Below, one piece after another: positions 25,459 through 59,109 of a DNA stretch of 64,000 nt. This stretch comes from an uncultured Candidatus Saccharibacteria bacterium. GTDB lineage: Bacteria; Patescibacteriota; Minisyncoccia; Phycocordibacterales; UBA9973. The stretch's first letter is position 1. Every line of letters starts with the position of its first letter. The translations under genes and the position numbers were made by a program. The notes under the pieces are model-generated. The model saw only the letters and a program-made list of their open reading frames with translations. It ran no database searches and was not told the DNA's origin. The stretch lies in assembly GCA_964404925.1 (NCBI GenBank), contig CAYOLW010000003.1:575-64574 (forward strand). Reading direction: 5' to 3'.

Positions 25459-25538
25459 TGAGTTGAAATTAGAAATGAAAAGAAAGCGTTATGCGTCCAG
25501 GCCACGCCGCTTTCTAGGGTCAATGCCTGTTAATCTTT

Positions 25539-28542: not shown

Positions 28543-28550
28543 TTCAATTA

Positions 28551-38407: not shown

Positions 38408-38891
38408 TAATTATCCCAGTGGCACCTATTGTTATTGTTTTAGTTGCGTTTGGTACAGCCACAGTTATTGTACCAGTCTTGTTGGGCACACCAGTCAGCC
38501 TAGAAAAATACACGTCATTACCTCCACCAGATAAACTTATATTTGAAATATATGCAGGTAAAGCAATATTTATAGTTTCATCAGTACCAGATGGATAACT
38601 AGAGCCTTTAAATATTATAAGGGCATTGGTACTAAAATGCACGCCATAAGTCGAAGAATCTATTGAAGCAAGTGTTTGAGAGTTTGCTTTTTTTAATACA
38701 GAAATTATTTCAGTAGTTGCTGATTGAAGAGATTGACGATTGCGTAAGGTAGAAAAACTTGTCAAAACGACGGCCAGTATAACTAACAAAATTACTACAG
38801 CAACAAGAATCTCAATTAGAGAGACACCCTGTAGTTTTGACTTATTAATCATGGTCAAATTATAACTTGATTTAACTTTTTTACCAAGCAA
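38397..38891 (-). CDS. type IV (pre)pilin
   Basis: ...KSKLQG|VSLIEILVAVVILLVILAVV (Gly-1, Glu+5). 164 aa. Confidence 0.8.
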   Translation of the reverse strand: MLGKKVKSSYNLTMINKSKLQGVSLIEILVAVVILLVILAVVLTSFSTLRNRQSLQSATTEIISVLKKANSQTLASIDSSTYGVHFSTNALIIFKGSSYPSGTDETINIALPAYISNISLSGGGNDVYFSRLTGVPNKTGTITVAVPNATKTITIGATGIISVN

Positions 38892-41867: not shown

Positions 41868-41904
41868 ATAGTAATTATAACAAAATAATACACACTCTCA
41901 AAAC

Positions 41905-41951: not shown

Positions 41952-44399
41952 TTATTGCCACTGACCTGTTAAGTCTGCATGCACTGATGGATTGGCTGCA
42001 TCAACAACTGTAGTTCCAGTAGGAAGTGGTAAATTAAACTTAAATGCACCTGGGTCAGCGGATAAGTTACCAAAAACATAGAATATGTCAGTTCCGGTAT
42101 AAGGCGTACTTTCATTACTGTAACCAGTAGCACCAGTAGATACAATCTTGAATACAGGAAGAACGTTTTGAGGGCTTTGAATTGTTATCGGTTTACTGAA
42201 GTTCACAGTGACTATCATTGATTTAGGGAAATTACCACTATCCCAAACCTTAGTAATTGATAAAACCTTTGGTGCATCAGCATTTTGCACAGTTACAAAA
42301 ACACTGTTTAATGTAAATTGCCCAACCGTGTTAGTGCAACTTAGTTGAAAAATTGTATCCTGTGTTAAGTTATTTATAACAATAGAACCACTTGCAACCT
42401 TCTGCCCCGTCCAAGTAGAAACAGGTGAGCTAGTAGCAGTACAAGGGTTTGAGCCGTTCATATTAGTAGTACTCCAAGTTAATGTAGTGCTACCATTCGT
42501 AACCGGATTAGGGTCTGCAGATAGTGTAATTACTGGATCTGGACCTTGTTGGACTGTTACAATTACAGATTCTGAGATTGAACCTCCTGGACCACTGCAA
42601 TCTATGCTAAATGTTGTATCTGAAGTTAGTGCAGCTTGCGTGTCCCAATTACCACTTGCTGGTCTAGAATAACCTGTAGTTGCCCATCCAGATGAACCAC
42701 CGGTAGATTTACAAGCAGTTACATTTGTAGTTATCCACGTTATTTTTGTTGTACCGTTTGCGTTAGTACTTGAAGTAAGCGACAATGTTGGTTTTATACT
42801 TACAACCACAGAATCAGAAACCATAATACCGTTTGCATTTGTACAATTAATAGTGAAGGTTGTTTGAACATTTAAACCATTAATTGTAGCTGAACCAGCG
42901 GCAACTTCGTGTGCAGTATTCCAAGAAGCTTTGTTTGGCGAACTAGTTCCGAAGCAAGTACTAACATTATTGTTAGTCCAGTACAAACTAAAACTTTCTC
43001 CAGCATCTATAGATAGAGTGTCCACACCCTCTGCTTTTAAATCAACCTCTGACATAATATTTGGAATTGCTACTCCACCATTCTGAAGTGTGTAAATAGC
43101 AATTTTTTTTAGCCCAGGTTCTACTGCTTTTATCCATGCAGCTTCATCAAAACTATGATCATTTTCATCTTCTATAAATACTCCCCATGGATCTGTACCG
43201 TAAAATCCAATGACCTCTGTAGGCCTAAACGTTCCAGTATTTATTTCATTAGAAATTTGTGTAGTAGAAAAATCCTTCGTATTTGGTGTAATGGTAGAAT
43301 TGCTTACCACATAACGCCAAGCGTAATCTTGAGAATAATATTTATTACCTATAATTTCAATTGTACCAATCCAGGCACCTGCCGTTACACCATTATCCCC
43401 TACAGCCAGGGCTAAATTATAATCTTGCGGCAAAGTAAACTTAGTACATTTTTTGTAGTTTTTCCAAGTTGGAATACCATATATTGCTACATTCATGTTT
43501 TTGCAGATAGGTTGTAAATCTGCCACCTTACCATTAGCACCAATTTTATAAGAATATAAAGTAAATACAGCATCAGCAGAAATTTTAAACTCAAAAGGAT
43601 ATCCTGAAAGTGGAATACTCGCATTTGGATTGTTGTAATTAGTCGTTATAGTATTTGACTGCCACCAAGGAGTTGTAGTTGTAGCTAAAATGTTATTGCC
43701 ATTAAGGTAGTAAACAGGCGAAGAAGTAGCAGCTCCAGTGTTAGTAAAATTTTGTGTAAGGTTCTGAGTAAGACCTGAGGTTAGTTGTGATGTGTTTTGT
43801 CCAAAGCTTAAATTCTGACTTTGTGTACTAATGTTTATAGATGAATTTGTGTTTATAGAATTATTAACCAACTGACTGGCGCCTGTTGAATTAACATCGA
43901 TACCAGTATTAGTACTCTGAGTTTGGTTAGTGCTAGACAAAGCTAGTATTGTTGGTTTACTTGCTACGGTCAAAACACTATTTAAGACTTGTTGAGCTGT
44001 TGGATTTAAAGAAGCCTTCCTTAAATTCTGATTTTGGGTTTGATATAAGGAACGCAAATAGGTAAGCGTTTTATTATTTGCAGTACTCAACTTAATACCT
44101 GGATAAATGTTCATGAATTTGAACGTATGTGGTCCAGCAGAACCATCGGGGACCAAACCAGCAAGTTTCTGATAAGCAATAACTGCAGATTTAGTTCCAG
44201 GTCCAAATTTACCATCAACTTTTTTATTATAAAGACCTTGGTTTACTAGATAAGCTTGAAGTGCAGATACTGCTGGACCAAAACTACCAACCTTTAAAAA
44301 CTTTACCCCGGAGTCATTATTCAAAAAAGATGAATCTGTAGCTGCACTGGCAGATATTGAGAGCAAAGAAATAATTAAAATAAAAAGATATTTTTTCAT
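41952..44399 (-). CDS. secreted protein: signal peptide + peptidoglycan-binding domain (PG_binding_1-like) + S/T/N/Q-rich linker + three tandem ~70-aa Cys-pair Ig-like repeats
   Basis: MKKYLFILIISLLSISASA. PGBD: LKVGSFGPAVSALQAYLVNQGLY..DGKFGPGTKSAVIAYQKLAGLVPDG. Ig-like repeats LYWTNNN..C...INCTN, KITWITTNVTAC...IDCSG, TLTWSTTN..C...LSCTN. Confidence 0.6.
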   Translation of the reverse strand: MKKYLFILIISLLSISASAATDSSFLNNDSGVKFLKVGSFGPAVSALQAYLVNQGLYNKKVDGKFGPGTKSAVIAYQKLAGLVPDGSAGPHTFKFMNIYPGIKLSTANNKTLTYLRSLYQTQNQNLRKASLNPTAQQVLNSVLTVASKPTILALSSTNQTQSTNTGIDVNSTGASQLVNNSINTNSSINISTQSQNLSFGQNTSQLTSGLTQNLTQNFTNTGAATSSPVYYLNGNNILATTTTPWWQSNTITTNYNNPNASIPLSGYPFEFKISADAVFTLYSYKIGANGKVADLQPICKNMNVAIYGIPTWKNYKKCTKFTLPQDYNLALAVGDNGVTAGAWIGTIEIIGNKYYSQDYAWRYVVSNSTITPNTKDFSTTQISNEINTGTFRPTEVIGFYGTDPWGVFIEDENDHSFDEAAWIKAVEPGLKKIAIYTLQNGGVAIPNIMSEVDLKAEGVDTLSIDAGESFSLYWTNNNVSTCFGTSSPNKASWNTAHEVAAGSATINGLNVQTTFTINCTNANGIMVSDSVVVSIKPTLSLTSSTNANGTTKITWITTNVTACKSTGGSSGWATTGYSRPASGNWDTQAALTSDTTFSIDCSGPGGSISESVIVTVQQGPDPVITLSADPNPVTNGSTTLTWSTTNMNGSNPCTATSSPVSTWTGQKVASGSIVINNLTQDTIFQLSCTNTVGQFTLNSVFVTVQNADAPKVLSITKVWDSGNFPKSMIVTVNFSKPITIQSPQNVLPVFKIVSTGATGYSNESTPYTGTDIFYVFGNLSADPGAFKFNLPLPTGTTVVDAANPSVHADLTGQWQ

Positions 44400-44426
44400 T
44401 GTCTAATGATTAATGCTAATAATAAA

Positions 44427-47400
44427 TTAGTGAGTATGCTGGTATAAAGAATTAATAGCAGCTATATCAATAGAACTTGGGTGCAAATTGTCTAATGTAC
44501 CAAAATTCGTATTTGGGTGACTTGGAAAACTATGAGTACCTCCGCCTGGAGCTCTTGAATAATCAGAACATGTGCCAAGGTTCATATTATAGTTATTTAC
44601 ATCTGCATGACCCATACCGATCGAGTGTCCTAATTCATGACACACTAAAAACTGTATATAATCTGGGGTGTTTAAATTAAGTTCGTCCATTTTCTTTTTA
44701 TTAAAACCAACTTCTGTTTGGTATTGATGTCCGCCACTTGCTGGATACCACCAAGCTGCACCTATCCATTGAGCTGGGCTTACACCATCGTCATCCTTAA
44801 AATCATCTCTATAATGTATAGGTACAGTATAACCTGGCCCACCTAAAGATATTTTTAACTTGCGCGCAAGGTTCCAGTCCTTCTTAGTTTGAATCAAATA
44901 TTCTTCCCAAGAAGCAGGTACACTCACGTTTTGCCAATTTACTAGAACTGGTTTACCTGAACCTGGCACATGATCTATAACTGGTTGTTGATGGTTTGTA
45001 CCAGGAGATAAAATACCGCCTTCACAGCTTCCACCGGTATCTACTGAATCTTCATTGCCATTTTTTATACCGTCACTACAAGTACCGTCTGATACAGGAG
45101 GTGTGCCACTACCCCCTCCCCCATTAGAGTTTTCTGAATCATCACTTGATGATGAACATCCAGGATCTACTGGGTAGTCTGTTTTTCCATCAGCATCGTT
45201 ATCTATTCCATCTGAACACTGTTTAGGAAGGATTATTCCACCAGGATTTACACCAGTCGATCCATTAACACTTTTTACTGTACCATCTGGACCGATTACA
45301 CCAATAAATCCATTACCGTAAGAAGGCATAGTACATTTTGGTAGGTTCGGATCATTTAATTTAGACCAGTCAAAAGAATAGTATTTCTTGCCATCAGGAG
45401 ACAAAGTAAATATTTTGTCTTTATTTAGAATCTCTAATGATAAATTTATATTTTCATCAATAAGAACGGACGGTATTGCGTTAGCAGGTATACCATCATT
45501 GTCCTTTTGTACATAAGAGAAATAAAGTCCGCTTTTTCCAGCTCCATCTAAAATTTTCATAGTTGGGTATGGCCCAGCTATATTAGGAATTTGATATTTT
45601 AAAGTAGGAGTGACATCCTTTACCCAAAATATTTTGTCTGTGCCTATTATTACCCTAACACTAGAAAGTGTAGGTGAAACTTTTGTACTTGTAATTCTTT
45701 TACAATAAACCTGACCGATGTCAGAGGCCGTGCCTACACCACCATCAGTTGGAGTTAGCGCTTGTGAAGCTTGAGCTACTTGAGATGATCCTACTTGGGC
45801 TAATGATTGAAACGCACTACTCAGTGTATCACTGAAACTATTGTTACTTGTACTAGTAACAGATGCGGATTCTGGCATGGTATGTGTATGCACAACAAAT
45901 GATCTTGGTTTTCCACGTGAATCCGTACCATAATTCTTGACATACCATTGGCTTGTAGGTGAATCTATAACCGCCTGACCCCAAGTTTTTGGCTTATTTA
46001 TATCGAACTGTTTTTTAATTACAGTTGTAATAAAACTTTGATTTTCTTGCTCATAAGCAGTATTTCGAATGTTAATAACATTATTCAATAAAGAAACATT
46101 GCTTGATTTCTTGTCTAATTCTTTCTGCAAAGCTTCGAAAGTTGCCCGGCCAATAACTCCATCTGGGGTTAGATTTTTATCTTTCTGGAAATCAATGATT
46201 TCATTTTTTGTTTGAGTGCCGAATACACCATCAGCTGAAACAGCATAATTGAGTGTAACTAAAGCCTTTTGTACTTCTTTTACTAAGCTACGATCTGTTT
46301 CTTGTGGTTTTATTACACCTAAATATTTGTTGGAATCTTCTTCGTTGAATGAAAGACCGTTAGGGCAAAGTGCTCCTGTGGCTTTAGCCGTCTTCAAATT
46401 CACAACCTTACCTTCCAGGCAAACTTCATCACTCAATGTAGCTGCAATTTGACTTTGATTATTAGAACTAGCACCCCCACAAGCATTTGTTCTATTCCAC
46501 CAGGACTGATCTGTTACGCTTGTGTTACCGTTCTCATCAACATACACAGACGGGCAATTCCCTACTTGCGTAGTGCCACCAGCACGAGCAGCTAATACAC
46601 CTTCTAAATCAAGAGTACCTGAATCTATTTGTGCAACCTCATCTAAGCTAAGTAAATAACATTGGTTCACTCCGTCTTTTACGCCACACACATATTTAGT
46701 ATTAACTGTACTAATAGGAGAACTAAAATTAGTGTTAAAATTAGACCCATTGGTTCCAGACTGAGCACCTGAAGCGGCAACGTTATATATACCCACATTT
46801 GAAAAGACTGAAAAATTAGATTTTGGTTTGGATGTTATTTTTTTAGCAGCAGTTGAGGTGTCTAGCACCAAACCAGACTGTGGTTTGAGTGCCCGGGTTA
46901 ACACATTTTTTGGTAGAGATGGTATAGATATTTTATTTGTACTACCAGAAACATTGTTAGTATTAGTACCTGTTGTAACCACAGCCTCTCCCTTAGACAA
47001 AGATTCAATGTAACTCATTGTCCTTGGCCCAGCTACACCGTCGGCTGTTAACTGTCCATTAGTTGTAGACTGAAATGCCTTCACAGCTTCCTTGGTTTTT
47101 GGACCATATACACCATCAATAGATCCATTATAAATTCTCTGGTTGTATAAGAAAGCTTGCAGGAGTACAACTTCTTGTTTAGCTACCGCCCCTGGTTTTA
47201 ATACAGAGTCAGTACTAACAGATGTATTCTGATCAGAAATTTCTGTATTGATTTTTATCTTTGGGACCACCACCTTTTGCACAGTAGAAGCAGTTGTTAA
47301 TTGAGCTGTTTCTGTTGAATGTGCACCCACTATATACGGTGCCAAAACCAACACAAGGACGACAATAAAAATTAAATATCTTTGCATGGATTGATAATAA

Positions 47401-47438
47401 ATGTTTAATAATAATACTTTACAGGTATTATACCCCAC
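44427..47438 (-). CDS. secreted multi-domain protein: 2x peptidoglycan-binding domain + Asp-rich Cys-bracketed (TSP3/calcium-binding-like) repeats + C-terminal metzincin zinc protease domain
   Basis: PGBDs (LLQAFLYNQRIY.GSIDGVYGPKTKEAVKAFQ; VQKALVTLNYAVSADGVFGTQTKNEIIDFQ). CSDGIDNDADGKTDYPVDPGC and GTCSDGIKNGNEDSVDTGGSC. HELGHSIGMGH = HExxHxxGxxH. True start probably at 47387 (MQRYLIFIVV signal peptide). Confidence 0.65.
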   Translation of the reverse strand: MGYNTCKVLLLNIYYQSMQRYLIFIVVLVLVLAPYIVGAHSTETAQLTTASTVQKVVVPKIKINTEISDQNTSVSTDSVLKPGAVAKQEVVLLQAFLYNQRIYNGSIDGVYGPKTKEAVKAFQSTTNGQLTADGVAGPRTMSYIESLSKGEAVVTTGTNTNNVSGSTNKISIPSLPKNVLTRALKPQSGLVLDTSTAAKKITSKPKSNFSVFSNVGIYNVAASGAQSGTNGSNFNTNFSSPISTVNTKYVCGVKDGVNQCYLLSLDEVAQIDSGTLDLEGVLAARAGGTTQVGNCPSVYVDENGNTSVTDQSWWNRTNACGGASSNNQSQIAATLSDEVCLEGKVVNLKTAKATGALCPNGLSFNEEDSNKYLGVIKPQETDRSLVKEVQKALVTLNYAVSADGVFGTQTKNEIIDFQKDKNLTPDGVIGRATFEALQKELDKKSSNVSLLNNVINIRNTAYEQENQSFITTVIKKQFDINKPKTWGQAVIDSPTSQWYVKNYGTDSRGKPRSFVVHTHTMPESASVTSTSNNSFSDTLSSAFQSLAQVGSSQVAQASQALTPTDGGVGTASDIGQVYCKRITSTKVSPTLSSVRVIIGTDKIFWVKDVTPTLKYQIPNIAGPYPTMKILDGAGKSGLYFSYVQKDNDGIPANAIPSVLIDENINLSLEILNKDKIFTLSPDGKKYYSFDWSKLNDPNLPKCTMPSYGNGFIGVIGPDGTVKSVNGSTGVNPGGIILPKQCSDGIDNDADGKTDYPVDPGCSSSSDDSENSNGGGGSGTPPVSDGTCSDGIKNGNEDSVDTGGSCEGGILSPGTNHQQPVIDHVPGSGKPVLVNWQNVSVPASWEEYLIQTKKDWNLARKLKISLGGPGYTVPIHYRDDFKDDDGVSPAQWIGAAWWYPASGGHQYQTEVGFNKKKMDELNLNTPDYIQFLVCHELGHSIGMGHADVNNYNMNLGTCSDYSRAPGGGTHSFPSHPNTNFGTLDNLHPSSIDIAAINSLYQHTH

Positions 47439-47505
47439 TACCCAAAGAAAAACACCCTGAGGAGAGTCCAGAGTGTTTCCTTGTGTGTCCTTATATATTT
47501 ATATT

Positions 47506-50337: not shown

Positions 50338-50386
50338 TAATAATTAATACTAATATATCAAATTCACCCACAATAAAAATCTACCT

Positions 50387-50860
50387 TCATTTTCTTGACA
50401 GAATTACATAATCATTTGGAGAAAAAGTCGCTTTATCAGGATATGAGTAAAGTTTCCAAGCATTGTCTTTCAAAACACACCTAAACAATGAGTTAATTTC
50501 TGTGCCAGAATTAATAGGAGTAGTTATAACTACAAAACTTTTTACAGGTTCTTTTGGTGGTTTTCTTTTAATTTGAAGAAAAAGTGCTGGGCCGACTTGA
50601 TGAGGACAAGGAACGTATCCTTTATCTTTAGCCAAATTAATAATTTTTTCTAAATTCATGTCTTCTTTTAAGCCTAATTCACTACAAGTGAGTAAGATTA
50701 CTCTATCTTCAAAAGATCTTTTTTCTTTAACCATATTCTGTAGCATTGAATAAGCTGCTTCAGAACAAAAAGGTTTTATCTCTTCTTCTACTTGAGTATT
50801 AGATATATTAGGATCAACCTTGAATTCAGGTTGATGAATGTTGTTTTTAAGTTTTTCCAT
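50387..50860 (-). CDS. hypothetical small cytoplasmic protein embedded in the secreted-protein array
   Basis: 157 aa, no signal peptide or TM segment. Conserved Cys pairs (FCSEAA..., YVPCPH). No recognised motif. Confidence 0.4.
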   Translation of the reverse strand: MEKLKNNIHQPEFKVDPNISNTQVEEEIKPFCSEAAYSMLQNMVKEKRSFEDRVILLTCSELGLKEDMNLEKIINLAKDKGYVPCPHQVGPALFLQIKRKPPKEPVKSFVVITTPINSGTEINSLFRCVLKDNAWKLYSYPDKATFSPNDYVILSRK

Positions 50861-50891
50861 TACTACCTACAACTCTCTAAGAGTTTTTAAA

Positions 50892-53258
50892 TTAATTAAG
50901 AAGCAAATTATCAAATATAATTTGCGGAGGTAATGTAGTGTCAACGACAGCACTGTTTAAGTCTGTAATAGCACCACCATTCAACTCAATCTCACCAACC
51001 CCCTCATAGTCGACCTCCCATGATGTACCGGTTATATCTGGATCATCCCAGGCACGAAAAACAATAGCATTTGTACCAGAACCTCGATTATAAGGAGCTA
51101 CAACTTTACTTTCTCCAGTAGTATCGTTAGTAATTCTAATCCTTGGTTGCCCTGTTATAAACACTGGTTCACTAAATTGAATAGTGTACTCAGCACGATA
51201 CTCGACATCTGTTCCACTTACTGTATAGAGGCGATAGGATGCATAACCAGAAATAGGTTTAACATGGTTACCTGATGGTAAACAATTTTGTACTAAAGAA
51301 AATGTTCCTACACTTAGACTTACATCTTTACCGCTAACAGCTTTTATATTAGAACCATTAACTAAGCTTAGAGTTCCTGAACCGTAGTATTCAAGACCAT
51401 CTTCAATTTCTGTTCGGAATTTTAAAGAAGTATGTTCTGCGTCATCATAACCTAAAAATACAGCTGTTATAGGTTGAGATGCTGGGGAAGGTTTAATCAA
51501 TAAATTAGGCACACCAGTAACAACAACTGGCTCAGCAAACACAACCCTATAAGTAACACCTCCATTCATAGGATTACCATACTCATCATTTCTGTAATTC
51601 ATGCATATTCCAGAAACATTAACTGGAGGGTTGACTATTTCGTCACAAATTTTTAATCGATATATTTCGTAATTAGCCATTTTACCTTCTGGATCCCAGT
51701 CACTGCCTTCAAAAATCCATTTAGCAGTTGATGAAATACCAGGTATATCACCCCAAGGATATACACCGTGATCACCGATTGCAAATGTCTGTGCCCAAAC
51801 TGCACTTTTAATTTGGTTTAATACATCACTTAGGTTGAAATCAGCTGGATGTACAGGAACTGGTGTTGTTGTTTTTGTAACTTCAAAAACAGGAGTTCCA
51901 GTTTCATAGCTTTCTTCTCCAACTTTCAAACTGGCTAGAAATCCGTGTGTTACCCACCCATCATGAGCAGCCGCGAAATAAATATTTTTTGCATTAGTTG
52001 GTGCAGTTCCAGTATATTTTTCTGAACTTTTCCAACCTGGTTGAGTTCCGTTAGAGTTAGGGGTTGCTTCATCCCAATTCATATCAGAGCCTATTGATAA
52101 TAAACTTTCATTACCGCTTGAATCCCTTAGCCCCCAATAAGCATGAAATACATTATCACTTGTTACATTAAGATCATAAGATTTACCAAGAATATCACTT
52201 GCTGGAATACATGCCTCTGGATCAATTCCAACCGGAGTACCAGGAGGAGTTATAAATTCACCACTACCTGGACCACCTCCACCTCCACAACCACCGCCAG
52301 AAGTAATTGTTATGTTTCCATCATCATCCTTAGTACAAAAAGGGCAAGTTCCACCATCATCTGAACCTAATATTTCTGCAATAACAGCAGCTGCATCCAA
52401 CTGCCCCGCCTTAATTGCTTCAGCAATAGCCAAAGAAACAGCAACACAAGTATTGTCACCTTGATATTCAGCACATATGTTATATAAAGAAACTTCATCA
52501 ATAGCTTGATTGTAGTTTGAACCAAATCCATTAAAAGCTACGGTATTTACACCACTAGCTGTTACTAGTTTTACATTAGCCTTAGCTAATAAATCAGCTA
52601 TGGCCGCTTTGGGTTTTTTGGTAACAGTTTTTGGGTTAGTTGTTTTACTTACCACCTGCACTGTAGTAAATTTTGGAGCTTGAGGTAATGCCTTTGATAA
52701 AACAGAACTTACATCTTTGGGTAATTTTGCCAAAACTATTTTTGGTGTTGATACACTAGTTGCTGGATTTTTGGTTGGACTAGATGTTGTTATTTTATTA
52801 TTGTTTTTTCCAGAAAGAATGGTGAGTTGTTGTTGTTTTAAATACTGAACAACACCGTTATCGAGATTTTTAAGAGCAATACCTGTTGGTGCGTTCGCTA
52901 CATATAAGGCTGTTTTAGGACCAAATACTCCGTCAGCTGTTAGCACTTGTGTTTTTTTCTGAAAGTCTATCAAAGCTTTTTTCGTCTGAGGTCCAAAAGA
53001 TCCATCAATACCAATATTATATCCTTGGTTAAAAAGCCAGGCTTGAAGATATCGCACATCTTCTCCTTTCATTCCGACCTTCAAAACAGAACGTGCCGCA
53101 GCAGGCTTAGAAGACTCTCCTTGCTTAATGGCTTGGGAGTAAGATTTCTTTAGAACCGGGACAACCTGATGTGATACGGTCGAGCTAAACTGTGCTTTAG
53201 AGATTGCCGGGACCAGCAGTATTCCGAACAATATAAGAATGCTTAAATATTTTTTCAT
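50892..53258 (-). CDS. secreted PGBD-family protein: signal peptide + 2 PGBD-like segments + Gly-rich hinge + beta-rich C-terminal domains
   Basis: LKVGMKGEDVRYLQAWLFNQGYNIGIDGSFGPQTKKALIDFQKK..DGVFGPKT. CGGGGGPGSG hinge. C-terminal blocks paralogous to 47506..50337. Confidence 0.55.
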   Translation of the reverse strand: MKKYLSILILFGILLVPAISKAQFSSTVSHQVVPVLKKSYSQAIKQGESSKPAAARSVLKVGMKGEDVRYLQAWLFNQGYNIGIDGSFGPQTKKALIDFQKKTQVLTADGVFGPKTALYVANAPTGIALKNLDNGVVQYLKQQQLTILSGKNNNKITTSSPTKNPATSVSTPKIVLAKLPKDVSSVLSKALPQAPKFTTVQVVSKTTNPKTVTKKPKAAIADLLAKANVKLVTASGVNTVAFNGFGSNYNQAIDEVSLYNICAEYQGDNTCVAVSLAIAEAIKAGQLDAAAVIAEILGSDDGGTCPFCTKDDDGNITITSGGGCGGGGGPGSGEFITPPGTPVGIDPEACIPASDILGKSYDLNVTSDNVFHAYWGLRDSSGNESLLSIGSDMNWDEATPNSNGTQPGWKSSEKYTGTAPTNAKNIYFAAAHDGWVTHGFLASLKVGEESYETGTPVFEVTKTTTPVPVHPADFNLSDVLNQIKSAVWAQTFAIGDHGVYPWGDIPGISSTAKWIFEGSDWDPEGKMANYEIYRLKICDEIVNPPVNVSGICMNYRNDEYGNPMNGGVTYRVVFAEPVVVTGVPNLLIKPSPASQPITAVFLGYDDAEHTSLKFRTEIEDGLEYYGSGTLSLVNGSNIKAVSGKDVSLSVGTFSLVQNCLPSGNHVKPISGYASYRLYTVSGTDVEYRAEYTIQFSEPVFITGQPRIRITNDTTGESKVVAPYNRGSGTNAIVFRAWDDPDITGTSWEVDYEGVGEIELNGGAITDLNSAVVDTTLPPQIIFDNLLLN

Positions 53259-53290
53259 ATAACTTGTAAATAATTAATAATACCTAAAAA

Positions 53291-54640
53291 TTACTGTCCC
53301 ATACCCGGTAGAATAACAGTGAAATATACTTCATCATCTGGTTCAAGCGGAGTGCTTCCGCCGGGTGCAACACCCATTGTATAAACATTAAATTCAATTC
53401 GATCTGCTGTATTAGTATTTGAAAGAAGAATATATTTACCAGTAACTCCCTTACGTATAAACTGTGTTGATAATATATTATTTGAATCAATATTCAACCC
53501 TGTGCTTGCATTACAACCTGCACCAATACTATCAAAATGGGCTTTAAATTCAAAATTAGCGAGTGAACCATTAAAATTACATATGGTAACTTCTTTGTTA
53601 ATATCCGCTGGATTATTAGAAGAAAGTACCTTCGTTTTTACAATTTCCAAATTACTACCATTTAATCTAACAGAAAAAGCAAGCAAGCGATCTATACCAG
53701 TAAACACATTATCTGGTGAAGTAAACTGAACCCACCTTGCTCCACCAGGGAAACCTTCGTTATATATAAGAGTTATAGTTTGATTAGGTCTGAGTTTTAG
53801 ATCTTCGCCACCTGATAATTTAATTCGATTAGTTAAATTACATAATGAACTATTATTTTTTATGGTGAAAGTATTGCTTTGATTATTGTTGGTTATGTAT
53901 ACAATCCTCCCGTTAATATGTGAACCACCGGATGGTGGGGCAAATCCTTCAATCGTCATGGAGTTAGATCCATCCAGCTTAAAATAAGTCGCATTACCAA
54001 GTTCAAGGTTTGTTGTGTTACCAGTATTTACAGTAATTGCAAGAGTTGAGAGTAATAATTTTTTACCTATTTTAAAATCACTATCAGCTAAAATCAAATT
54101 ACCATTATCGCTAATACTAGAATTACCTAGAGTGTTCAATCCTGTAAATTTAGAAAGAAAATTAGCTTGTCCTGTACCATCATTGACTAAACCTCCTCCC
54201 CCTCCACCACCTCCACCAGTTCCAACTGGAACCCAGAATGATCCATCAAAGAAATAAAAACCTGGAGTATTGTCTGTTTGATATATTAAAAGTCCGATAG
54301 CAGGTGTTGCAATAAGGTCTCTCTGTGCTTTGTTCATACGTGGAGGTAAGAAACCTTTGGTAGTTGAACGAAGTTCTAATACAGATGAAGCGTTAGGAAC
54401 ATCTAATGCACCGAATATTCCATTCTCAACACCAACAATACTTGTATCAGAACGTAGTGCTCCAGCGATTAGTGCTCCTGATTTACGTTGAGCTGTTAGA
54501 CTTACATTTACTGGTGGTTCTGGATTAGCTCCTGGTGGAGTTGCAGTTGGATCTGTCCACACAGCCAATGCATGGAATGACAAAGCTAGTAGTGCTAGTA
54601 CTAGGGTGGACCTTAGGATTGTTTTAATATTTTGATACAT
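53291..54640 (-). CDS. hypothetical secreted protein with poly-Gly (G9) hinge
   Basis: Signal peptide MYQNIKTILRSTLVLALLALSFHALA. Motif region IGLLIYQTDNTPGFYFFDGSFWVPVGTGGGGGGGGG followed by beta-rich domain. No catalytic motif recognised. Confidence 0.4.
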   Translation of the reverse strand: MYQNIKTILRSTLVLALLALSFHALAVWTDPTATPPGANPEPPVNVSLTAQRKSGALIAGALRSDTSIVGVENGIFGALDVPNASSVLELRSTTKGFLPPRMNKAQRDLIATPAIGLLIYQTDNTPGFYFFDGSFWVPVGTGGGGGGGGGLVNDGTGQANFLSKFTGLNTLGNSSISDNGNLILADSDFKIGKKLLLSTLAITVNTGNTTNLELGNATYFKLDGSNSMTIEGFAPPSGGSHINGRIVYITNNNQSNTFTIKNNSSLCNLTNRIKLSGGEDLKLRPNQTITLIYNEGFPGGARWVQFTSPDNVFTGIDRLLAFSVRLNGSNLEIVKTKVLSSNNPADINKEVTICNFNGSLANFEFKAHFDSIGAGCNASTGLNIDSNNILSTQFIRKGVTGKYILLSNTNTADRIEFNVYTMGVAPGGSTPLEPDDEVYFTVILPGMGQ

Positions 54641-54705
54641 TGAATAATTATACTCTCTATTATTTTAATAATAAATACAAAACTGCTTTATTGTTGATTA
54701 TACCC

Positions 54706-55776
54706 TTATTTTTTTAAATCAACAAAGATAACTGATAAATTCCTTTTTCCATTCTTTGGGTCATCTCCGTAGTCTTTCAAGAAAATAATTGGTTGTCCTG
54801 TTTTTTTATCAAAAGCTACTGGCTCACCAAAGGTAGCCATTTCGTTAAAGTCTATACTTCGATCAATTTCAGTTGGAGCCATATACTCTTCAGTTGATTC
54901 GCCAGGTTTATTGGTTAAACCAAGTACCTCGCAGTTTGGACCTCTACAATAGTAACTATTTGAACTTCCTCCAGACAATGAAGTATTGGTACATTCCTCT
55001 GTGTGCTCACTGGTTGTGACACAAGTATACTTAGAGTTTGCAGGATCGGAAGATCCTTCAAAATTAGTATTAAATTCAGAAGATCCTGTGATAGTGTTGC
55101 CACCTGCAGTTATATTTATTGTATTAGACTGACTAGTGCCAAAATTCGTTTTTGGTTTTTTTGTTAAACTTGCTACCAGCGAACCAACGAAAGAAGAAGA
55201 ATTATTATTAGACCCTTCAGCGCCAGGTTGGTTCTTAGATAAAACATAAGTCAGAACACCCTTTGGAGTTGTTGGTAACTGAAAATTAGTGATTCCAATG
55301 AAACTATTCTTATTGGATGCTACTTGTTTACTGTTTTGCTTTAACTTATTTTTAAAGTCAGCAAATTCATCTGGTAGCACACTTTTAACATCAGATACTT
55401 TTTGATTAGTAAAACGATCAGAGAACATTCTGAGTGCACTGGCAGTAGCTGGTCCAAATACTCCATCAGATTTTATACCCAAATCTTTTTGTAGTTTTTT
55501 AATTGCTTGAATTGTTTTAGGTCCCACAACACCATCTGGTTCTCCAGGATTATATCCAGCATTTATGAGACCTACCTGAAGAAGCACATTCAGAGAATTA
55601 CTGTCGGAACTTTTCTTTATTACCTTACTGTCGCTCACATTATCTACCCCTCTATAAGAAGTTATAGTTTTACTAACGGTTGATTCTGTCTGACCAAAAA
55701 CAATCGTGGGTAACAGGAACAATCCTAATATAATTGTGCTTAAATATTTTTTCATATATTTTCTAAGATTTAACAT
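54706..55776 (-). CDS. secreted PGBD-family protein (short member)
   Basis: Signal peptide ...LLPTIVFGQ. PGBD LLQVGLINAGYNPGEPDGVVGPKTIQAIKKLQKDLGIKSDGVFGPAT. Shared linker KPKTNFG...FNTNFEGSS...YTC. Confidence 0.55.
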   Translation of the reverse strand: MLNLRKYMKKYLSTIILGLFLLPTIVFGQTESTVSKTITSYRGVDNVSDSKVIKKSSDSNSLNVLLQVGLINAGYNPGEPDGVVGPKTIQAIKKLQKDLGIKSDGVFGPATASALRMFSDRFTNQKVSDVKSVLPDEFADFKNKLKQNSKQVASNKNSFIGITNFQLPTTPKGVLTYVLSKNQPGAEGSNNNSSSFVGSLVASLTKKPKTNFGTSQSNTINITAGGNTITGSSEFNTNFEGSSDPANSKYTCVTTSEHTEECTNTSLSGGSSNSYYCRGPNCEVLGLTNKPGESTEEYMAPTEIDRSIDFNEMATFGEPVAFDKKTGQPIIFLKDYGDDPKNGKRNLSVIFVDLKK

Positions 55777-55781
55777 AAAAT

Positions 55782-57068
55782 TTAAGGTATATTTGCATAA
55801 GCGTCGGTAAGAGCTTTAATGTCGTTTGGGTTTGGGTGTTCGTTGCTTATACCAAAATTAACTGACTGTCCGTCACAATTTTGAGTACCGCCAACTATTG
55901 AATACGCGTAGTCCATTACACTACCCGTGTTTGGATTACAAAATTCAACGTCTTGATGATCTAATCCAAAAGAATGACCTAATTCATGACTAACGACGTA
56001 TTGTTGCTGAATGTGATTATTGTAAGAAGCAGTTTTCATCCAATGATCATTAATATAAACAGGCGCACTTATTATCTTATTACCATTCAAATTAACTTGA
56101 GTAACACCTACCCAGCCAGTTTCTCCGAAGTCACAGTTTTGAATTGATACTTTAATTGAATCACTACCATCTTGAGTGACAACTATTGGAGCTGCCTGAT
56201 TCCAGTCACGAAGAGCACGAGGTATAAATTGTGAATACACGGGTGACAACTGGTCATCTATACTTATCTTTACAGGTCTGGTCTGTGATGGCCAGTGACC
56301 AAAAAAGGCAACATTACTACCAGGACCCACGCCACCAAGCATTGCAGGGCTACATCTACCACCAGAATCAACACCAGTTTCATTACTATTTTTTATACCA
56401 TCAGAACACGTGCCTAATTCCTGCGCGGTAGGACCCCATGTTCCACAAGCTGCACCACCAGAACTACCCCCACCGCTTGTACCACCACCACTGGTACCAC
56501 CGCTACTACTGGTCGATGGTTTAACGCATTCTGGTAATTTTTCATTCAAATTTGAAAAATCTACTGGATAGTATTTCCTTGGATCTTCTGTCCCTGAACC
56601 CAAGGTATGTATTAATCCAGATTTTAATATAATTAAATCTGCGTTTGAATCAGTAAAATAATCTTTTGCACTTCTAGTACCGTTATGTTTATCGTAATAT
56701 ACAAAAGTAATTGGATTAGCAATCATACCATTACTTGGGCCAGAGAATTTTAACTCTGGGTGAACTAGCTTACCGTCGTAATTAGAATCTTTGGCATATA
56801 GAGATGGTAAATTGTTCTCAACGTAAAAATATCTTCCGTATGAAGTACCAATTTCATAAGTTATCATTATTGAGTCTGATTTAGAATCAACTTTTTTAGT
56901 TAAACAAGTTATCTGAGCATTCTTTTGTGCATCACCAGGACCACCATTTATTGGTTTATTTTTTAAACCAACAAAATTGACAGGCCCCAATGCATTGACA
57001 CTAGATTTTCCCAATGCAAAAAACATTACTATAACAACCAGACTTATCACAAAAAATAATTTTTTCAT
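55782..57068 (-). CDS. secreted metzincin-type zinc metalloprotease (paralogous catalytic domain to the C-terminus of 44427..47438)
   Basis: Signal peptide. Gly/Ser linker GGTSGGGTSGGGSSGG. GTCSDGIKNSNETGVDSGGRC. HELGHSFGLDH (HExxHxxGxxH) followed by SVMDY (Met-turn candidate). Confidence 0.65.
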   Translation of the reverse strand: MKKLFFVISLVVIVMFFALGKSSVNALGPVNFVGLKNKPINGGPGDAQKNAQITCLTKKVDSKSDSIMITYEIGTSYGRYFYVENNLPSLYAKDSNYDGKLVHPELKFSGPSNGMIANPITFVYYDKHNGTRSAKDYFTDSNADLIILKSGLIHTLGSGTEDPRKYYPVDFSNLNEKLPECVKPSTSSSGGTSGGGTSGGGSSGGAACGTWGPTAQELGTCSDGIKNSNETGVDSGGRCSPAMLGGVGPGSNVAFFGHWPSQTRPVKISIDDQLSPVYSQFIPRALRDWNQAAPIVVTQDGSDSIKVSIQNCDFGETGWVGVTQVNLNGNKIISAPVYINDHWMKTASYNNHIQQQYVVSHELGHSFGLDHQDVEFCNPNTGSVMDYAYSIVGGTQNCDGQSVNFGISNEHPNPNDIKALTDAYANIP

Positions 57069-57095
57069 ATTTTTATTAAAAATACATTCTATTTA

Positions 57096-58778
57096 CTAAT
57101 TCTCAGTATATTTTGGTCTAACAGTACTAAATGTCCCCCCACTTCCTTCATTCATTTGAATTTCGGCTATGTACTGCTCGCCTGAGTATTTACCAGTACA
57201 TGTTAATCTATATATTGTGTAATCTGGTGCAGTAACAGGCACAATAACTCCAATCTGTTCCCCGGGAGGGCCAGATTTTTGTCCAGGCCAGTTTGGCCCA
57301 CCATCAGTTGCAACACATGATCCAGTCTCCATATTTACAGCAGACCAAGAGAAATCACTGGTGTACTCACTGGTTGGTCCGAGCACCACTTCTGTTGCTT
57401 TCAAAGTTAAAGATTCAAGCAAACTACCCCGAATAACTGAAATTTGAGAAGTTATAGAATTACCCGCCACGTCTTTGCATGTAAGTTTAAAATTTGTTGG
57501 GTTGTAATCTGCATGAATTGGTGACTGCCAGGTGATTTGCGGTGCAACAGGTGCATCGTCTACTGGACCATCCCAGCCAACAACCGGCGCAGCGTTCAAC
57601 GGTGGAGCACTTTCTGCTACACAATTTGTAAGTGGATCATCAGAATTTAATGCTTGCCATTTAAGGGTAGTTGTAAAATCTGGAGGATATACCGTTGCTG
57701 GGTCAGCAAAGAAATTTAGCGATGAGGCTGCCCCAACTATAACTTTAGCAGTTGCTACGTTTGAAAGAGTTACACCATCTGATCCAAGGCATTGGATTGA
57801 ATAGTTATATACTCCATCAGCCAAAACACCTGTAGTAAAGGCACCAAGCGGAGAAGCTTTAGAAGTTCCTTGTCCATTGGTTCCATACCAATCTGCTCCA
57901 GTATTTGAAGATCCAGATGTCTGACATCCAGTCGGGCTGGTCAAAAGATTTTCACCAAGCCAACTAATAACTGTACTACCACCGGTTGGAACATATTTAG
58001 GATTAGCAGATATTGTCACAGATGGAGCTGAAAGGTAATTTACATTAGTGAATTTTATCCATCCAACTGAGTTTCTACCCGAATCATTACCGCCCCACGC
58101 CCATCCAGTTAATTGACCCGGTGTACCAAAAGAACCATCTGCTGTTGTAAAAGATAAGCCATAATTATTGCCCTGGTTTGGTGCACCACCCCCAGGAATA
58201 ACAGTACCTTTTAGGCTTACCCATCCATCCCATCCACCTTTTTTATTATCATCAGGGATAGCTGTTCCTAAACAAGTAACAGGATTAAGGGCTGCGGAAC
58301 AAAATCTTGCCCAGCCTGTTACAGATCCAGTTTTTGGATCAATTTTTGCATTAGACTCAATATTACCAGTACCTTTTGGAAAATCAGCTAAGCCGCCAAA
58401 TTTAAGCCATCCATAGTTAGATGACCAGGCATAGCCAACCATGTCGCCTGTAGCAACGTCTATATCAACACCATAATCATTATTTGCGCAAGTACCATTG
58501 TTTGTACAGTTAAAAGAAATCCAGCCTACTCCCCCTAATTTATCGGTTATTTCAACGGAAGACTCACCTGGATCTTGTTTCAAATTTCCATTCAAGTCCA
58601 CCCAAGAGTTTTGTGTGCCATTTTTATCTAAATCACTCCAGTTATCAGCTTCCCAAGCCCAACCTACAAAGTTTTGTGTAGCATTCGAGCTTACCTGCTT
58701 AAAAGAAAATACATACAGTATGGAAATTGCCACTAAAGCAATTATTCCAAAATGTTTTTTATAATTAAGCTTTTTCAT
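57096..58778 (-). CDS. secreted protein with N-terminal Trp-rich repeats (GWAW...GW[IL]KF) and two C-terminal Cys-pair Ig-like domains
   Basis: Repeats: VGWAWEADNW, GVGWISF, GYAWSSNYGWLKFGG, TGWARF, GWDGWVSL, TGWAWGGNDSGRNSVGWIKF. Ig-like: TVISWLGE..C...IQCLG and FSWSAVN..C...LTCTG. Confidence 0.45.
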   Translation of the reverse strand: MKKLNYKKHFGIIALVAISILYVFSFKQVSSNATQNFVGWAWEADNWSDLDKNGTQNSWVDLNGNLKQDPGESSVEITDKLGGVGWISFNCTNNGTCANNDYGVDIDVATGDMVGYAWSSNYGWLKFGGLADFPKGTGNIESNAKIDPKTGSVTGWARFCSAALNPVTCLGTAIPDDNKKGGWDGWVSLKGTVIPGGGAPNQGNNYGLSFTTADGSFGTPGQLTGWAWGGNDSGRNSVGWIKFTNVNYLSAPSVTISANPKYVPTGGSTVISWLGENLLTSPTGCQTSGSSNTGADWYGTNGQGTSKASPLGAFTTGVLADGVYNYSIQCLGSDGVTLSNVATAKVIVGAASSLNFFADPATVYPPDFTTTLKWQALNSDDPLTNCVAESAPPLNAAPVVGWDGPVDDAPVAPQITWQSPIHADYNPTNFKLTCKDVAGNSITSQISVIRGSLLESLTLKATEVVLGPTSEYTSDFSWSAVNMETGSCVATDGGPNWPGQKSGPPGEQIGVIVPVTAPDYTIYRLTCTGKYSGEQYIAEIQMNEGSGGTFSTVRPKYTEN

Positions 58779-58782
58779 TAAA

Positions 58783-59109
58783 TTATTCCTGGCTAGCTGC
58801 AGAATTATCTTTTAAAAGACCGTCTAGTATTGTCTGTCTATCAGTTGGAGATAGCTGTGGTGCATCTTTACTGTTGTAAATTAACTCACTTTTCATTTTC
58901 TTAAGCTCAGCCTGTGTATACACAGGATTAGGCTCAGTCTCAATCAGGTCTTTGATTAAAGCATCGTGAGCAGCTTTTTTATTAGCTTCATCAATTTCTC
59001 TTTGACGCTTTTGATAGAATAAATACATAGTAGCTCCAGCTACAACTAGCAAAAGTAGAATCCATAAAATTAGATTTCGTTTCCAATGTCCCATTTCTAA
59101 ATTATACAT
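58783..59109 (-). CDS. hypothetical small single-pass membrane protein
   Basis: 108 aa, one TM helix (LILWILLLLVVAGATMYLFY) then charged coiled region. First minus-strand gene at the strand switch. Confidence 0.4.
   Translation of the reverse strand: MYNLEMGHWKRNLILWILLLLVVAGATMYLFYQKRQREIDEANKKAAHDALIKDLIETEPNPVYTQAELKKMKSELIYNSKDAPQLSPTDRQTILDGLLKDNSAASQE

Follow-up and report, generated by a model that had tools for sequence, protein, structure and literature searches.

Gene content of the locus

In the window, i.e., the whole stretch of 64,000 nucleotides analyzed here, an array of co-directional minus-strand genes (41952-58778) ends 84 bp from pilB and runs on, in the same direction, into pilB-pilC and the genes for three minor pilins and for PilX-like proteins. 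Its bearer is a tiny, uncultured Paceibacterota bacterium (Nomurabacteria-like, candidate phyla radiation). The features of the region are the following:

32511..40109, minus strand: block downstream of pilB, with PilC (38892-40109) followed by minor-pilin-like genes at 38397-38891, 37901-38407 and 37407-37904 and by three large proteins whose N-termini resemble PilX (36028-37407, 34271-36058, 32511-34289)
40119..41867, minus strand: PilB-type assembly ATPase, T2SSE plus MshEN domain (Pfam E 2.9e-120)
41874..41901, minus strand: promoter-like site, the best in the region (11/12 matches, extended -10), between A and pilB, which are 84 bp apart
41952..44399, minus strand: A, signal peptide, PGBD, S/T/N-rich spacer, D-type β-sandwich, Cys-pair Ig-like repeats; final gene before pilB
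44427..47438, minus strand: B, signal peptide, PGBD1, linker/Cys module, PGBD2, a region of unknown type, F-like N-domain, acidic double-disulfide repeats (acid_disulf_rpt), C-terminal metzincin-like domain
47506..50337, minus strand: C, signal peptide, PGBD, linker/Cys module, string of Ig-like "F.EPV" domains, end VFDNPLLN
50387..50860, minus strand: s157, small ORF without signal peptide
50892..53258, minus strand: D, signal peptide, PGBD, linker/Cys module, β-sandwich (residues 331-542), two Ig-like "F(S/A)EPV" domains, end IFDNLLLN
53291..54640, minus strand: pG, signal peptide, G11 run
54706..55776, minus strand: E, signal peptide, PGBD, linker, reduced Cys module, 65-aa tail; the shortest with the module
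55782..57068, minus strand: F, signal peptide, β-rich N-domain, Gly-rich hinge, CSDGIKN disulfide repeat, mini-metzincin; no PGBD
57096..58778, minus strand: G, signal peptide, Trp-rich repeats (GWAW / GWISF / GWLKF type), then Cys-pair Ig-like repeats
58783..59109, minus strand: tm108, small, one N-terminal transmembrane segment by hydrophobicity; opens the slot, 128 bp from the divergent nusA
59238..60395, plus strand: nusA, divergent, upstream boundary of the variable slot

A preliminary description of this DNA had placed ORFs A to E where we also find them, together with a Trp-repeat protein (G), a poly-Gly protein (pG) and a small signal-less ORF (s157), all of which are present. It had called the five ORFs consecutive, but other genes are interspersed among them. 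The adjoining type IV pilus operon and the nusA-pilB slot, the most telling context of the array, do not figure in it. All five PGBD ORFs begin with M(K/Q)(K/R)YL, and the signal peptides it reported correspond to a hydrophobic, signal-like N-terminal segment in every member (s157 aside). No further transmembrane segment, LPxTG motif or lipobox cysteine was detected in any member. The true starts of B (ATG 47387), C (GTG 50322) and E (ATG 55755) probably lie later than those of the longest ORFs, since orthologs and the NCBI protein P0012, equivalent to residues 6-943 of C, begin there.

Choice-of-anchor R domains occur in two of the three large PilX-like proteins. Searches of Pfam, NCBIfam and PHROG gave no family match above threshold for tm108, G or s157, and G had no match in PDB either; its repeats show weak similarity to the Ig-like part of A (E 3.8e-8). 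For pG there was a weak Phage_depo_C match below the cut-off (19.3 versus 25 bits), and its ortholog in the related locus L004 bears a precomputed PTL_trimer label that hmmscan did not reproduce. The GC content of the array is that of its flanks, and no tRNA genes were found within the window. There are no long DNA repeats among the array paralogs, which thus appear to be old.

A shared N-terminal module with divergent C-termini

The peptidoglycan-binding domains proposed earlier were upheld by profile searches, with all five ORFs exceeding the Pfam PG_binding_1 gathering score of 23 bits (A, 57.2; B, 99.6 for two copies; C, 46.3; D, 44.9; E, 48.8). These PGBDs match those in solved structures of L,D-transpeptidase, DD-carboxypeptidase, endolysin and SleB, and they are also kept in the orthologs. 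The linker said to be common to the five ORFs is real for four of them: its landmarks (LPK..VL, TKKPK, NTNFS and Y.C-x8-C...C-x2-C) align across B, C, D and E, but A has no linker/Cys module, the module HMM matching only the other four even at E<=10 (protein E at E 6e-31). The linker regions are rich in S/T/N/Q/G/P/K/A. The module is rare: 1.84 billion representative proteins yielded just 14 clusters that have it. Alignments therefore bear out a common targeting or anchoring module followed by divergent C-terminal domains, and the claimed paralogy of C and D is equally clear, both in their C-terminal blocks (37% over 279 aa, E 4e-47) and in their N-terminal modules (33%, E 2e-25).

The AF2 model of residues 331-542 of D is all-β (pLDDT 81.6, pTM 0.83) and had no Foldseek match at E<=1e-3 in PDB or BFVD. 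The mid-domain of A aligns with it (23% identity). The predicted β-sandwich common to D and A is novel, without a detectable structural relative in these two databases. Only about 7 full-length relatives of D were found among 5.8 billion proteins. Given that structure searches consisted of Foldseek on PDB and BFVD, we call these domains adhesin-like solely for their β-sandwich and Ig-like character.

Two members had been described as carrying metzincin motifs. HExxHxxGxxH is indeed present in B (HELGHSIGMGH) and F (HELGHSFGLDH), and the two domains are paralogous (32% over 219 aa, E 9e-23), but F lacks a PGBD, which leaves B as the sole PGBD member with a metzincin-like domain. F scored just at the Pfam gathering thresholds (Reprolysin_5, 27.0 bits, cut-off 27; M10, 23.3 bits, cut-off 24), so no family-level assignment is possible. 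Its motifs (HELGHSFGLDH and the Met-turn SVMDY) are invariant across 7 homologs. The AF2 model of F has a mean pLDDT of 55.5 (58-73 in the catalytic core, as 10-residue block means), and its best Foldseek match in PDB was snapalysin 1kuh (E 1.7e-4, TMt 0.68), the other top matches being almost all metzincins (serralysin, MMPs, myroilysin and astacins). Among the families compared (snapalysin M7, matrixins M10, serralysins, astacins and reprolysins M12) snapalysin is the closest by structure. F resembles metzincins in HExxHxxGxxH(x)D, in the SxMxY-type Met-turn and in the predicted topology of β-sheet, active-site helix and C-terminal helix. The model thus gives F a metzincin fold with intact motifs, and F would act as a protease. 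Matrixins combine a PGBD-like prodomain with a metzincin domain, a pairing that B recalls; no PRCG cysteine switch was found. B departs from metzincins in having no Met-turn methionine (TCSDY versus SVMDY in F). Its ortholog P0018 keeps HEFGHSIGMGH and TCSDY, and the B' orthologs have QExxH, with the first zinc-binding histidine lost. With catalytic motifs altered across its lineage, B may not be a protease.

A variable slot between nusA and pilB

The pilB-pilC-pilin backbone is syntenic across related loci, and nusA-pilB synteny is present in 31 of them. The space between both genes spans 17.4 kb here and 72-7,733 bp in the 31 related species, several of which have nusA directly beside pilB (gaps of 72-230 bp). 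Elsewhere the slot is often filled by large proteins with hydrophobic N-termini that match PKD, CARDB, β-helix, TSP1 or, weakly, M10, and G-like proteins occupy it in L016, L019, L021 and L023. Across the 80 related pilB loci examined, the region ahead of pilB contained neither a PGBD protein nor a linker protein.

An orthologous array lies directly upstream of pilB in three loci, L001, L004 and L007, whose PilB is 85-86% identical to that of the window (at most 78% in GTDB species representatives). Against 85% for PilB, the array proteins are only 38-74% identical, gene order has changed and C-terminal tips have been replaced. Most paralogs still have recognizable orthologs, and their divergence is mosaic: N-modules and proximal domains are 50-86% identical, distal tips 17-37%. 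Identities are 34-38% for A, 63-65% for C, 74% for E in L004, and about 51% for pG in L004 and L088, pG being conserved among relatives in its N-terminal two-thirds. s157 is present only in the array of this genome, and in L001, L004 and L007 the D' and C' orthologs adjoin. The cluster is accessory and variable, a point that the preliminary description had put forward for testing.

The number of promoter-like sites in the region was not above the shuffled expectation, so the site at 41874..41901 is only suggestive of a separate promoter for pilB. A site this strong before pilB suggests separate transcription, which weakens the case for co-regulation.

Comparison with known protein families

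A close biological parallel comes from the same bacterial class. In host-attached Paceibacteria ("Ca. Yanofskyibacterium", Microsyncoccus and Minisyncoccus), highly expressed extracellular proteins with signal peptides have been described in which PGBDs appear together with Ig-like folds; genes for secreted peptidases lie close by, and the proteins were proposed as attachment factors (Kuroda et al. 2024, PMC10936435). For at least one of them, PMX_810_sub_00350 (2,079 nt, about 690 aa), a Sec signal peptide is predicted (PMC10936435). Since the linker/Cys module of the array occurs in only 14 clusters worldwide, both are probably different families. Unlike here, neither a link to the nusA-pilB slot nor a tandem array was reported (PMC10936435).

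The array would also work like the Cwp proteins of Clostridioides difficile and other wall-anchored families of monoderms, combining one non-covalent wall anchor with varied domains that include a protease. Like the array, Cwp-type families (with CWB2, SLH or LysM anchors) are Sec-exported, and a single variable locus groups many of their paralogs. The array does not belong to them: its anchor is PG_binding_1 plus a unique linker/Cys module instead of CWB2 or SLH, it adjoins pilus genes, and neither an S-layer protein nor SecA2 was identified in the locus.

Possible function of the array

On balance we think it probable that the array encodes lineage-specific, paralogous, Sec-exported surface proteins that are held non-covalently by the wall and display adhesin-like domains and one or more proteases, beside the pilus genes. 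The signal peptide would be cleaved once the protein is exported, and the N-terminal PG_binding_1 domain would grip peptidoglycan non-covalently, the simplest candidate being the wall of the cell itself. The low-complexity S/T/N/K linker and the small 4-Cys domain would form a stalk spanning the wall, with the distal part (novel β-sandwich, Ig-like string or metzincin-type protease domain) facing outward. The stand-alone secreted metzincin F and protein G would accompany the PGBD family. The genes would be accessory cargo of the nusA-pilB slot, possibly co-regulated with the type IV pilus; being empty or otherwise filled in related species, the slot places them outside the pilus machine. No peptidoglycan synthesis genes were found in the window, so an own wall is not evident from it, and the sequence does not discriminate between own and host wall as the target of the PGBDs.

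Alternatively, the proteins might be released and attach through their PGBDs to the peptidoglycan of a host bacterium, whose envelope would be attacked or remodeled by the metzincins and the distal domains. No membrane, lipid or sortase anchor binds them to the producer, their PGBDs are typical of wall-acting enzymes, proteases are included, diversified tips suit host-specific recognition, and Paceibacteria PGBD proteins were proposed as host-attachment factors (PMC10936435). We nevertheless regard this as rather unlikely, for no peptidoglycan-cleaving domain is present, most members have Ig-like or β-sandwich domains alone, and a wholly released protein could not tether an epibiont to its host. 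Methanogenic archaea are not known to have murein. The Paceibacteria hosts reported to date are methanogenic archaea (PMC10936435). The wall remodeling suggested earlier is left without support, no peptidoglycan hydrolase domain having been found. A role in the pilus itself, either anchoring or guiding it through the wall or as T2SS-like cargo expelled by the pilus or pseudopilus machinery, seems more doubtful still. In every locus that extends to pilB, four in all (the window, L001, L004 and L007), the array is directly upstream of, and co-directional with, pilB-pilC-pilins, and the slot holds secreted proteins in many species. T2SS, too, has accessory proteins that contain a PGBD (ExeA/GspA). 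TcpF of Vibrio cholerae and CofJ of ETEC, secreted factors from type IV pilus operons, are models for pilus-expelled cargo, and the array likewise has Sec-signal proteins encoded in the gene cluster of pilus machinery. However, it shares no sequence similarity with them and is missing from most related pilus loci; the 0/80 count and the gaps of 72-230 bp indicate that the pilus machine does not need these proteins. In addition, no more than 14 protein clusters contain the module, none of the array proteins has a pilin-like N-terminus, pilB may be transcribed separately, and its adjacency could merely mark a permissive insertion site.

The likeness to polymorphic effectors noted in the preliminary description holds only for architecture, since the array shares with polymorphic toxin systems, as defined by Zhang et al. 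2012 (PMC3482391), a constant N-terminal trafficking part and variable C-termini. A system of that type, in which C-terminal toxins are swapped and matched by immunity genes, is very improbable: no toxin domains were found, the C-termini being Ig-like, β-sandwich or metzincin domains, there are no immunity pairs, orphan cassettes or long DNA repeats, and the one small cytoplasmic ORF inside the array (s157) stands alone, is missing in relatives and has no family match. Equally hard to credit is a cluster of housekeeping enzymes for wall synthesis or turnover (L,D-transpeptidases, amidases and carboxypeptidases). The array PGBDs find their closest counterparts in such enzymes, but the matches cover the PGBD portion only and all NCBIfam matches are far below the cut-offs. 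The preliminary description had considered an L,D-transpeptidase/amidase set; YkuD, amidase, M15 and NlpC/P60 domains were not found in the array proteins (Pfam and NCBIfam), and without such catalytic domains it is not a set of this kind. The cluster is also missing from related species and the family is tiny. The array is thus neither a polymorphic toxin system, nor a housekeeping wall enzyme set, nor a core part of the pilus.

Returning to the wall-held surface proteins that we favor, the replacement of tips between close relatives is, judging from the alignments, as expected for surfaces of contact or recognition. Filling a highly variable slot upstream of the type IV pilus genes, the array is a plausible, if unproven, toolkit for cell contact, and it represents a lineage-specific form of a known kind of system, not a new one.

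An array of secreted proteins beside the pilus operon

Ten ORFs lie back-to-back on the minus strand (41952-59109), transcribed in the order listed here.

ORFs of the array in order of transcription
58783-59109, minus strand: tm108, small ORF
57096-58778, minus strand: G, Trp-repeat protein
55782-57068, minus strand: F, metzincin-type protein
54706-55776, minus strand: E, PG_binding_1 (PGBD) protein
53291-54640, minus strand: pG, poly-Gly protein
50892-53258, minus strand: D, PGBD protein
50387-50860, minus strand: s157, small ORF
47506-50337, minus strand: C, PGBD protein
44427-47438, minus strand: B, PGBD protein with two PGBD copies
41952-44399, minus strand: A, PGBD protein

All except s157 have a hydrophobic N-terminal segment, which we read as a TM anchor in tm108 and as a signal peptide in the others. 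In none of the ten was there a TM segment past the N-terminus, and with no LPxTG motif and no lipobox Cys at the predicted cleavage sites they do not classify as sortase-anchored proteins or lipoproteins. The true starts of B, C, and E, as indicated by their orthologs and one NCBI protein, are of the type M(Q/K)(R/K)YL, so that all five PGBD proteins (A to E) begin alike. Around the starts of D (53230-53269) and E (55727-55766), 40 nt that take in the ribosome-binding stretch upstream are 85% identical, the sole notable likeness at the DNA level among the array paralogs. Located between D and C, s157 has 157 aa and lacks a signal peptide, and neither Pfam, NCBIfam, nor PHROGs gave a match for it; it is missing from the orthologous arrays of the related loci L001, L004, and L007, in which the orthologs of D and C (D' and C') are adjacent. 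The N-terminal two-thirds of pG is conserved and is followed by a run of 11 Gly, with a weak, subthreshold match to Phage_depo_C. The precomputed label PTL_trimer of the pG ortholog in L004 was not recovered with hmmscan. Sequence searches of the PDB gave no match for G and pG, nor did PHROGs for pG, G, and tm108.

The gene pilB (T2SSE and MshEN domains) is found 84 bp past the end of the array on the same strand, followed by pilC, three minor-pilin-like genes, three large genes with a PilX-like N-terminus and then TIM and PGK. Upstream, and divergent, are nusA, an inorganic pyrophosphatase, a coiled-coil ORF, the trigger factor and clpP; housekeeping genes make up the remainder of the window. 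Of the promoter-like sites in the region, the best sits directly before pilB, in scans for terminators and promoters whose counts were no higher than in shuffled sequence. A mobile-element origin was considered and rejected: tRNA genes are absent from the window, the GC content is uniform, being the same in the array as in its flanks, flanking DNA repeats and long internal ones are both lacking, and no slot ORF (i.e., none in the nusA-pilB interval) has an integrase or transposase match in Pfam.

Several neighboring genes deserve a comment. At its N-terminus, the PilB ATPase (40119-41867, minus strand) has an MshEN domain (E 5.9e-9), a type known from c-di-GMP-binding pilus ATPases. The three large PilX-like paralogs (32511-37407, minus strand; 459, 595, and 592 aa) have the N-terminus KNSGQAML... 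in common, and a choice-of-anchor R domain is found in two of them (E 3e-10 and 4e-9). In related loci, the number of such genes varies from one to three. The three proteins may be pilus-tip or minor-pilin-like adhesins. Downstream of the pilus genes, at a distance of a few kb (26748-30224, minus strand), are ComEC (the competence channel) and RecJ; taken with the ComG-like minor pilins, they hint at a possible role of the pilus in DNA uptake. Farther away, an IleRS-like class I tRNA synthetase of 1,183 aa (11470-15021, minus strand) contains a histidine phosphatase domain (His_Phos_1, residues 523 to 676, E 5e-33), whose insertion separates two stretches of the catalytic core. An aconitase gene (E 1e-145) adjoins a weak isocitrate/isopropylmalate dehydrogenase-like gene (both within 23194-26711, minus strand) in a neighborhood that is otherwise reduced and of the CPR type. 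A DUF11-repeat protein of 647 aa found among the housekeeping genes (7108-9051, minus strand, E 9e-7) may be another surface protein.

Predicted wall-binding domain and linker/Cys module

Using the Pfam gathering score of PG_binding_1 (PF01471, 23 bits) as the cutoff, all five PGBD proteins passed, with 57.2 (A), 99.6 (B, two copies), 46.3 (C), 44.9 (D), and 48.8 bits (E), and so did their orthologs. The PG_binding_1-like domains described for five ORFs from the sequence alone are therefore borne out (45 to 100 bits), and these segments also match the PGBDs of solved wall-enzyme structures in the PDB. B, C, D, and E coalign from an N-terminal peptide (SSTVSK.V.P..KK) through the PGBD and a low-complexity linker, with the landmarks LPK..VL, TKKPK, and NTNFS, to a segment of ca. 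60 aa with four conserved Cys (Y.C-x8-C ... C-x2-C). An HMM of this linker/Cys module matched these four proteins and their orthologs, with no match in A or its orthologs; the linker, which had been described as common to all five, thus belongs to four of them. A and D have in common the signal peptide, the PGBD, and a domain of ca. 210 aa, and C and D are alike over their last ca. 280 residues (37% identity, E 4e-47).

Metzincin-type domains of F and B

B and F end in metzincin-type domains that are paralogs of each other (32% identity, E 9e-23), and the N-domain of F, a protein with no PGBD, aligns with an internal region of B. The extended zinc motif HExxHxxGxxH/D is present in both, as HELGHSFGLDH in F and HELGHSIGMGH in B. 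In F, this motif and the Met-turn SVMDY are invariant across the seven sequences of the family. The AF2 model of F is of low confidence (mean pLDDT, 55.5), with secondary-structure elements in metzincin order, and its top Foldseek matches in the PDB were almost all metzincins, snapalysin being the first (1kuh, E 1.7e-4, probability 1.0, TMt 0.68). The catalytic domain of F is hence predicted, from this low-confidence model, to have a metzincin fold. Pfam scores sit at the thresholds (27.0 for Reprolysin_5 and 23.3 for M10, with cutoffs of 27 and 24), and for this reason we did not assign F to a metzincin family. The score of B against M57 was 21.7 (cutoff, 21).

At the position of the Met-turn, B has TCSDY, with Ser instead of Met, and so does its ortholog P0018 (55% identical); HExxH is retained in both. 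In the B orthologs of other relatives (B'; L001:638-3946, L004:2703-6014, L007:530-3739, and also P0017 and P0019), the Met of the Met-turn is kept and the first zinc-binding His is replaced by Gln (QExxHxxGxxH or QExxH). One protease lineage therefore displays two complementary “defects,” and both losses, judged from the motifs, make catalysis in the B lineage doubtful. Of the two metzincins proposed in the preliminary description, F has the motif, the Met-turn, and the predicted fold; B retains the motif and lacks the Met of the Met-turn. An MMP-like zymogen reading of B was rejected because the PRCG cysteine switch is absent. The replacement of the C-terminal domain between B and B' that we had considered was also revised, as B' has a homologous metzincin-like domain with altered motif, plus an extra C-terminal extension.

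Divergence of the distal domains

By sequence, both the repeats at the C-terminal ends of C and D (F(S/A)EPV...G.P.L.I) and the Cys-pair repeats found in A and G look Ig-like, with no match in Pfam. Divergence along the orthologs is mosaic: the N-module (PGBD plus linker/Cys domain) and the proximal domains are 50 to 86% identical, and the C-terminal tips 17 to 37%. Among the low-identity tips are the final Ig-like domain of D and the C-terminal third of C; in B, the second PGBD, the unknown region, and the metzincin part are examples. The tip of D is closer to that of C in the same genome than to the tips of D orthologs. Since there are no long DNA repeats inside the array, the paralogs must be old and any exchange between them not recent.

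Distribution and the nusA-pilB slot

The family is very restricted. We found ca. seven full-length relatives of D among 5.8 billion proteins and ca. seven relatives of F, and the linker/Cys profile recovered 14 clusters (E < 1e-10) among 1.84 billion representatives, all of them B-, C-, D-, or E-type proteins. Relatives are annotated as “Candidatus Paceibacterota/Pacebacteria,” and by PilB, the nearest GTDB species are Paceibacterota, Nomurabacteria, and Minisyncoccia MAGs (≤78% identity). Exact-sequence look-ups of D and of P0002 in the contig index gave no match, and the gene neighborhoods of the relatives were obtained through P0003, P0005, P0006, and P0018. In L001, L004, and L007, an orthologous array is located directly upstream of pilB-pilC; PilB is 85 to 86% identical to that of the window, and the array proteins only 38 to 74%. 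Gene order also varies, being pG-D-s157-C-B-A in the window, pG-B'-D'-C'-A' in L004, and pG-B-X-D in another related locus (L088).

We scanned 80 pilB loci of GTDB species representatives with HMMs built from the PGBDs and linker module of the window. None of these related loci had a PGBD or linker protein upstream of pilB, nor did Pfam reveal a PGBD in nine slot proteins from six of them. The backbone is conserved (TF-PPase-nusA, the slot, then pilB-pilC-pilins-TIM-PGK). Where both borders were seen (31 loci), the slot spans 72 to 7,733 bp, and six of these slots are essentially empty (nusA-pilB gap of 72 to 230 bp); the 17.4-kb slot of the window is the largest seen. Filled slots mostly contain large ORFs with hydrophobic N-termini, and their tenants in relatives include PKD/CARDB, β-helix/TSP1, and InlB-B-repeat proteins, a weak M10 match, and Trp-repeat proteins similar to G. 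The latter occur in the slot of more distant species (L016:5905-8349, L019, L021:7212-8699, and L023:7738-9861), and G may be the oldest tenant. The variability of the slot and the absence of the array from related pilB loci indicate that the array is accessory cargo beside the pilus operon and not part of the pilus machine. Among related loci, the cluster varies both in presence and in gene order.

Interpretation of the array

The most economical explanation of the array is a family of wall-held, Sec-exported surface proteins. After export by Sec, the N-terminal PGBD would hold the proteins on the peptidoglycan, the low-complexity stalk and small disulfide domain would reach across the wall, and the cell surface would display the variable distal domains, accompanied by one clearly intact secreted metzincin (F). 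The position beside pilB suggests that the array might be used during cell contact. The CWB2-, SLH-, and LysM-anchored families of monoderm bacteria have the same build, i.e., a wall anchor with distal domains. The array resembles these Cwp/SLH/LysM families in function and architecture only, as no CWB2, SLH, or LysM repeats were found in it with Pfam. It also differs from the PGBD proteins of the ExeA/GspA type of the T2SS, which combine an AAA ATPase, a TM segment, and a periplasmic PGBD, whereas the array proteins have neither the ATPase domain nor an internal TM segment. Highly expressed PGBD/Ig-like proteins with signal peptides have been reported in host-attached Paceibacteria (PMC10936435), in agreement with the proposed mechanism.

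Other explanations share some of this evidence. The preliminary description saw an epibiont's arsenal for attachment to, and remodeling of, the host cell wall; the observation behind it is real and mostly accurate, but its interpretation is supported only in part, and targeting of the host wall by the PGBDs is the less likely reading, since the array has no domain that would cleave a wall. Proximity to pilB could speak for a core role in the pilus, but related pilus loci lack the array, which contradicts it: a core or accessory pilus component would co-occur with pilB/pilC across pilus-bearing lineages, and 0 of the 80 related pilB loci have a PGBD or linker protein upstream.

A common N-terminal module with differing C-termini also recalls polymorphic-toxin systems, but this explanation fails, since there is no match to a toxin family in the array, no spare cassettes or long repeats, and the sole small ORF in question, s157, is specific to the window, has no family match, and forms no immunity pair. 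Housekeeping wall enzymes, such as L,D-transpeptidases or amidases, would have PGBDs too, and here the PGBDs do pass profile searches; yet this reading fails as well, because the catalytic domains are absent (no YkuD, amidase, or M15 domain), only the PGBD portions match, NCBIfam scores are far under the cutoffs, and the distribution of the array is also against it.

A more ambitious proposal, which we consider improbable, is that the slot is a dedicated hot spot for the diversification of host specificity in Paceibacterota. The adjacent pilus or pseudopilus machinery would help to export and position the cargo (PGBD-module proteins, F, and G), which would bridge the pilus or wall of the epibiont to the host envelope, and tip swapping would set the host range. 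If true, the locus would encode an adhesin/protease system of cassette-like build, coupled to the pilus of an ultrasmall bacterium of the monoderm type. Should these turn out to be surface proteins of the ordinary wall-anchored sort, what remains is the annotation, useful in itself, of a family specific to this lineage, plus a new β-sandwich domain, with no new principle.

Wall-held surface proteins being the preferred explanation, the finding is a lineage-specific variant of modular wall-anchored surface proteins, whose new details are the narrow linker/Cys module, a β-sandwich without detectable relatives, and the hypervariable nusA-pilB cargo slot. Candidate phyla radiation bacteria need contact with other cells and, to our knowledge, hardly any of their contact proteins are known except for type IV pili. 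The locus supplies candidate surface proteins with a defined predicted wall-binding module, open to purification and testing, and the pair formed by the intact F and the altered B/B' suits a comparison of protease activity. The nusA-pilB slot, in which related species keep different large secreted proteins, is a simple genomic landmark that can be mined for determinants of host range.
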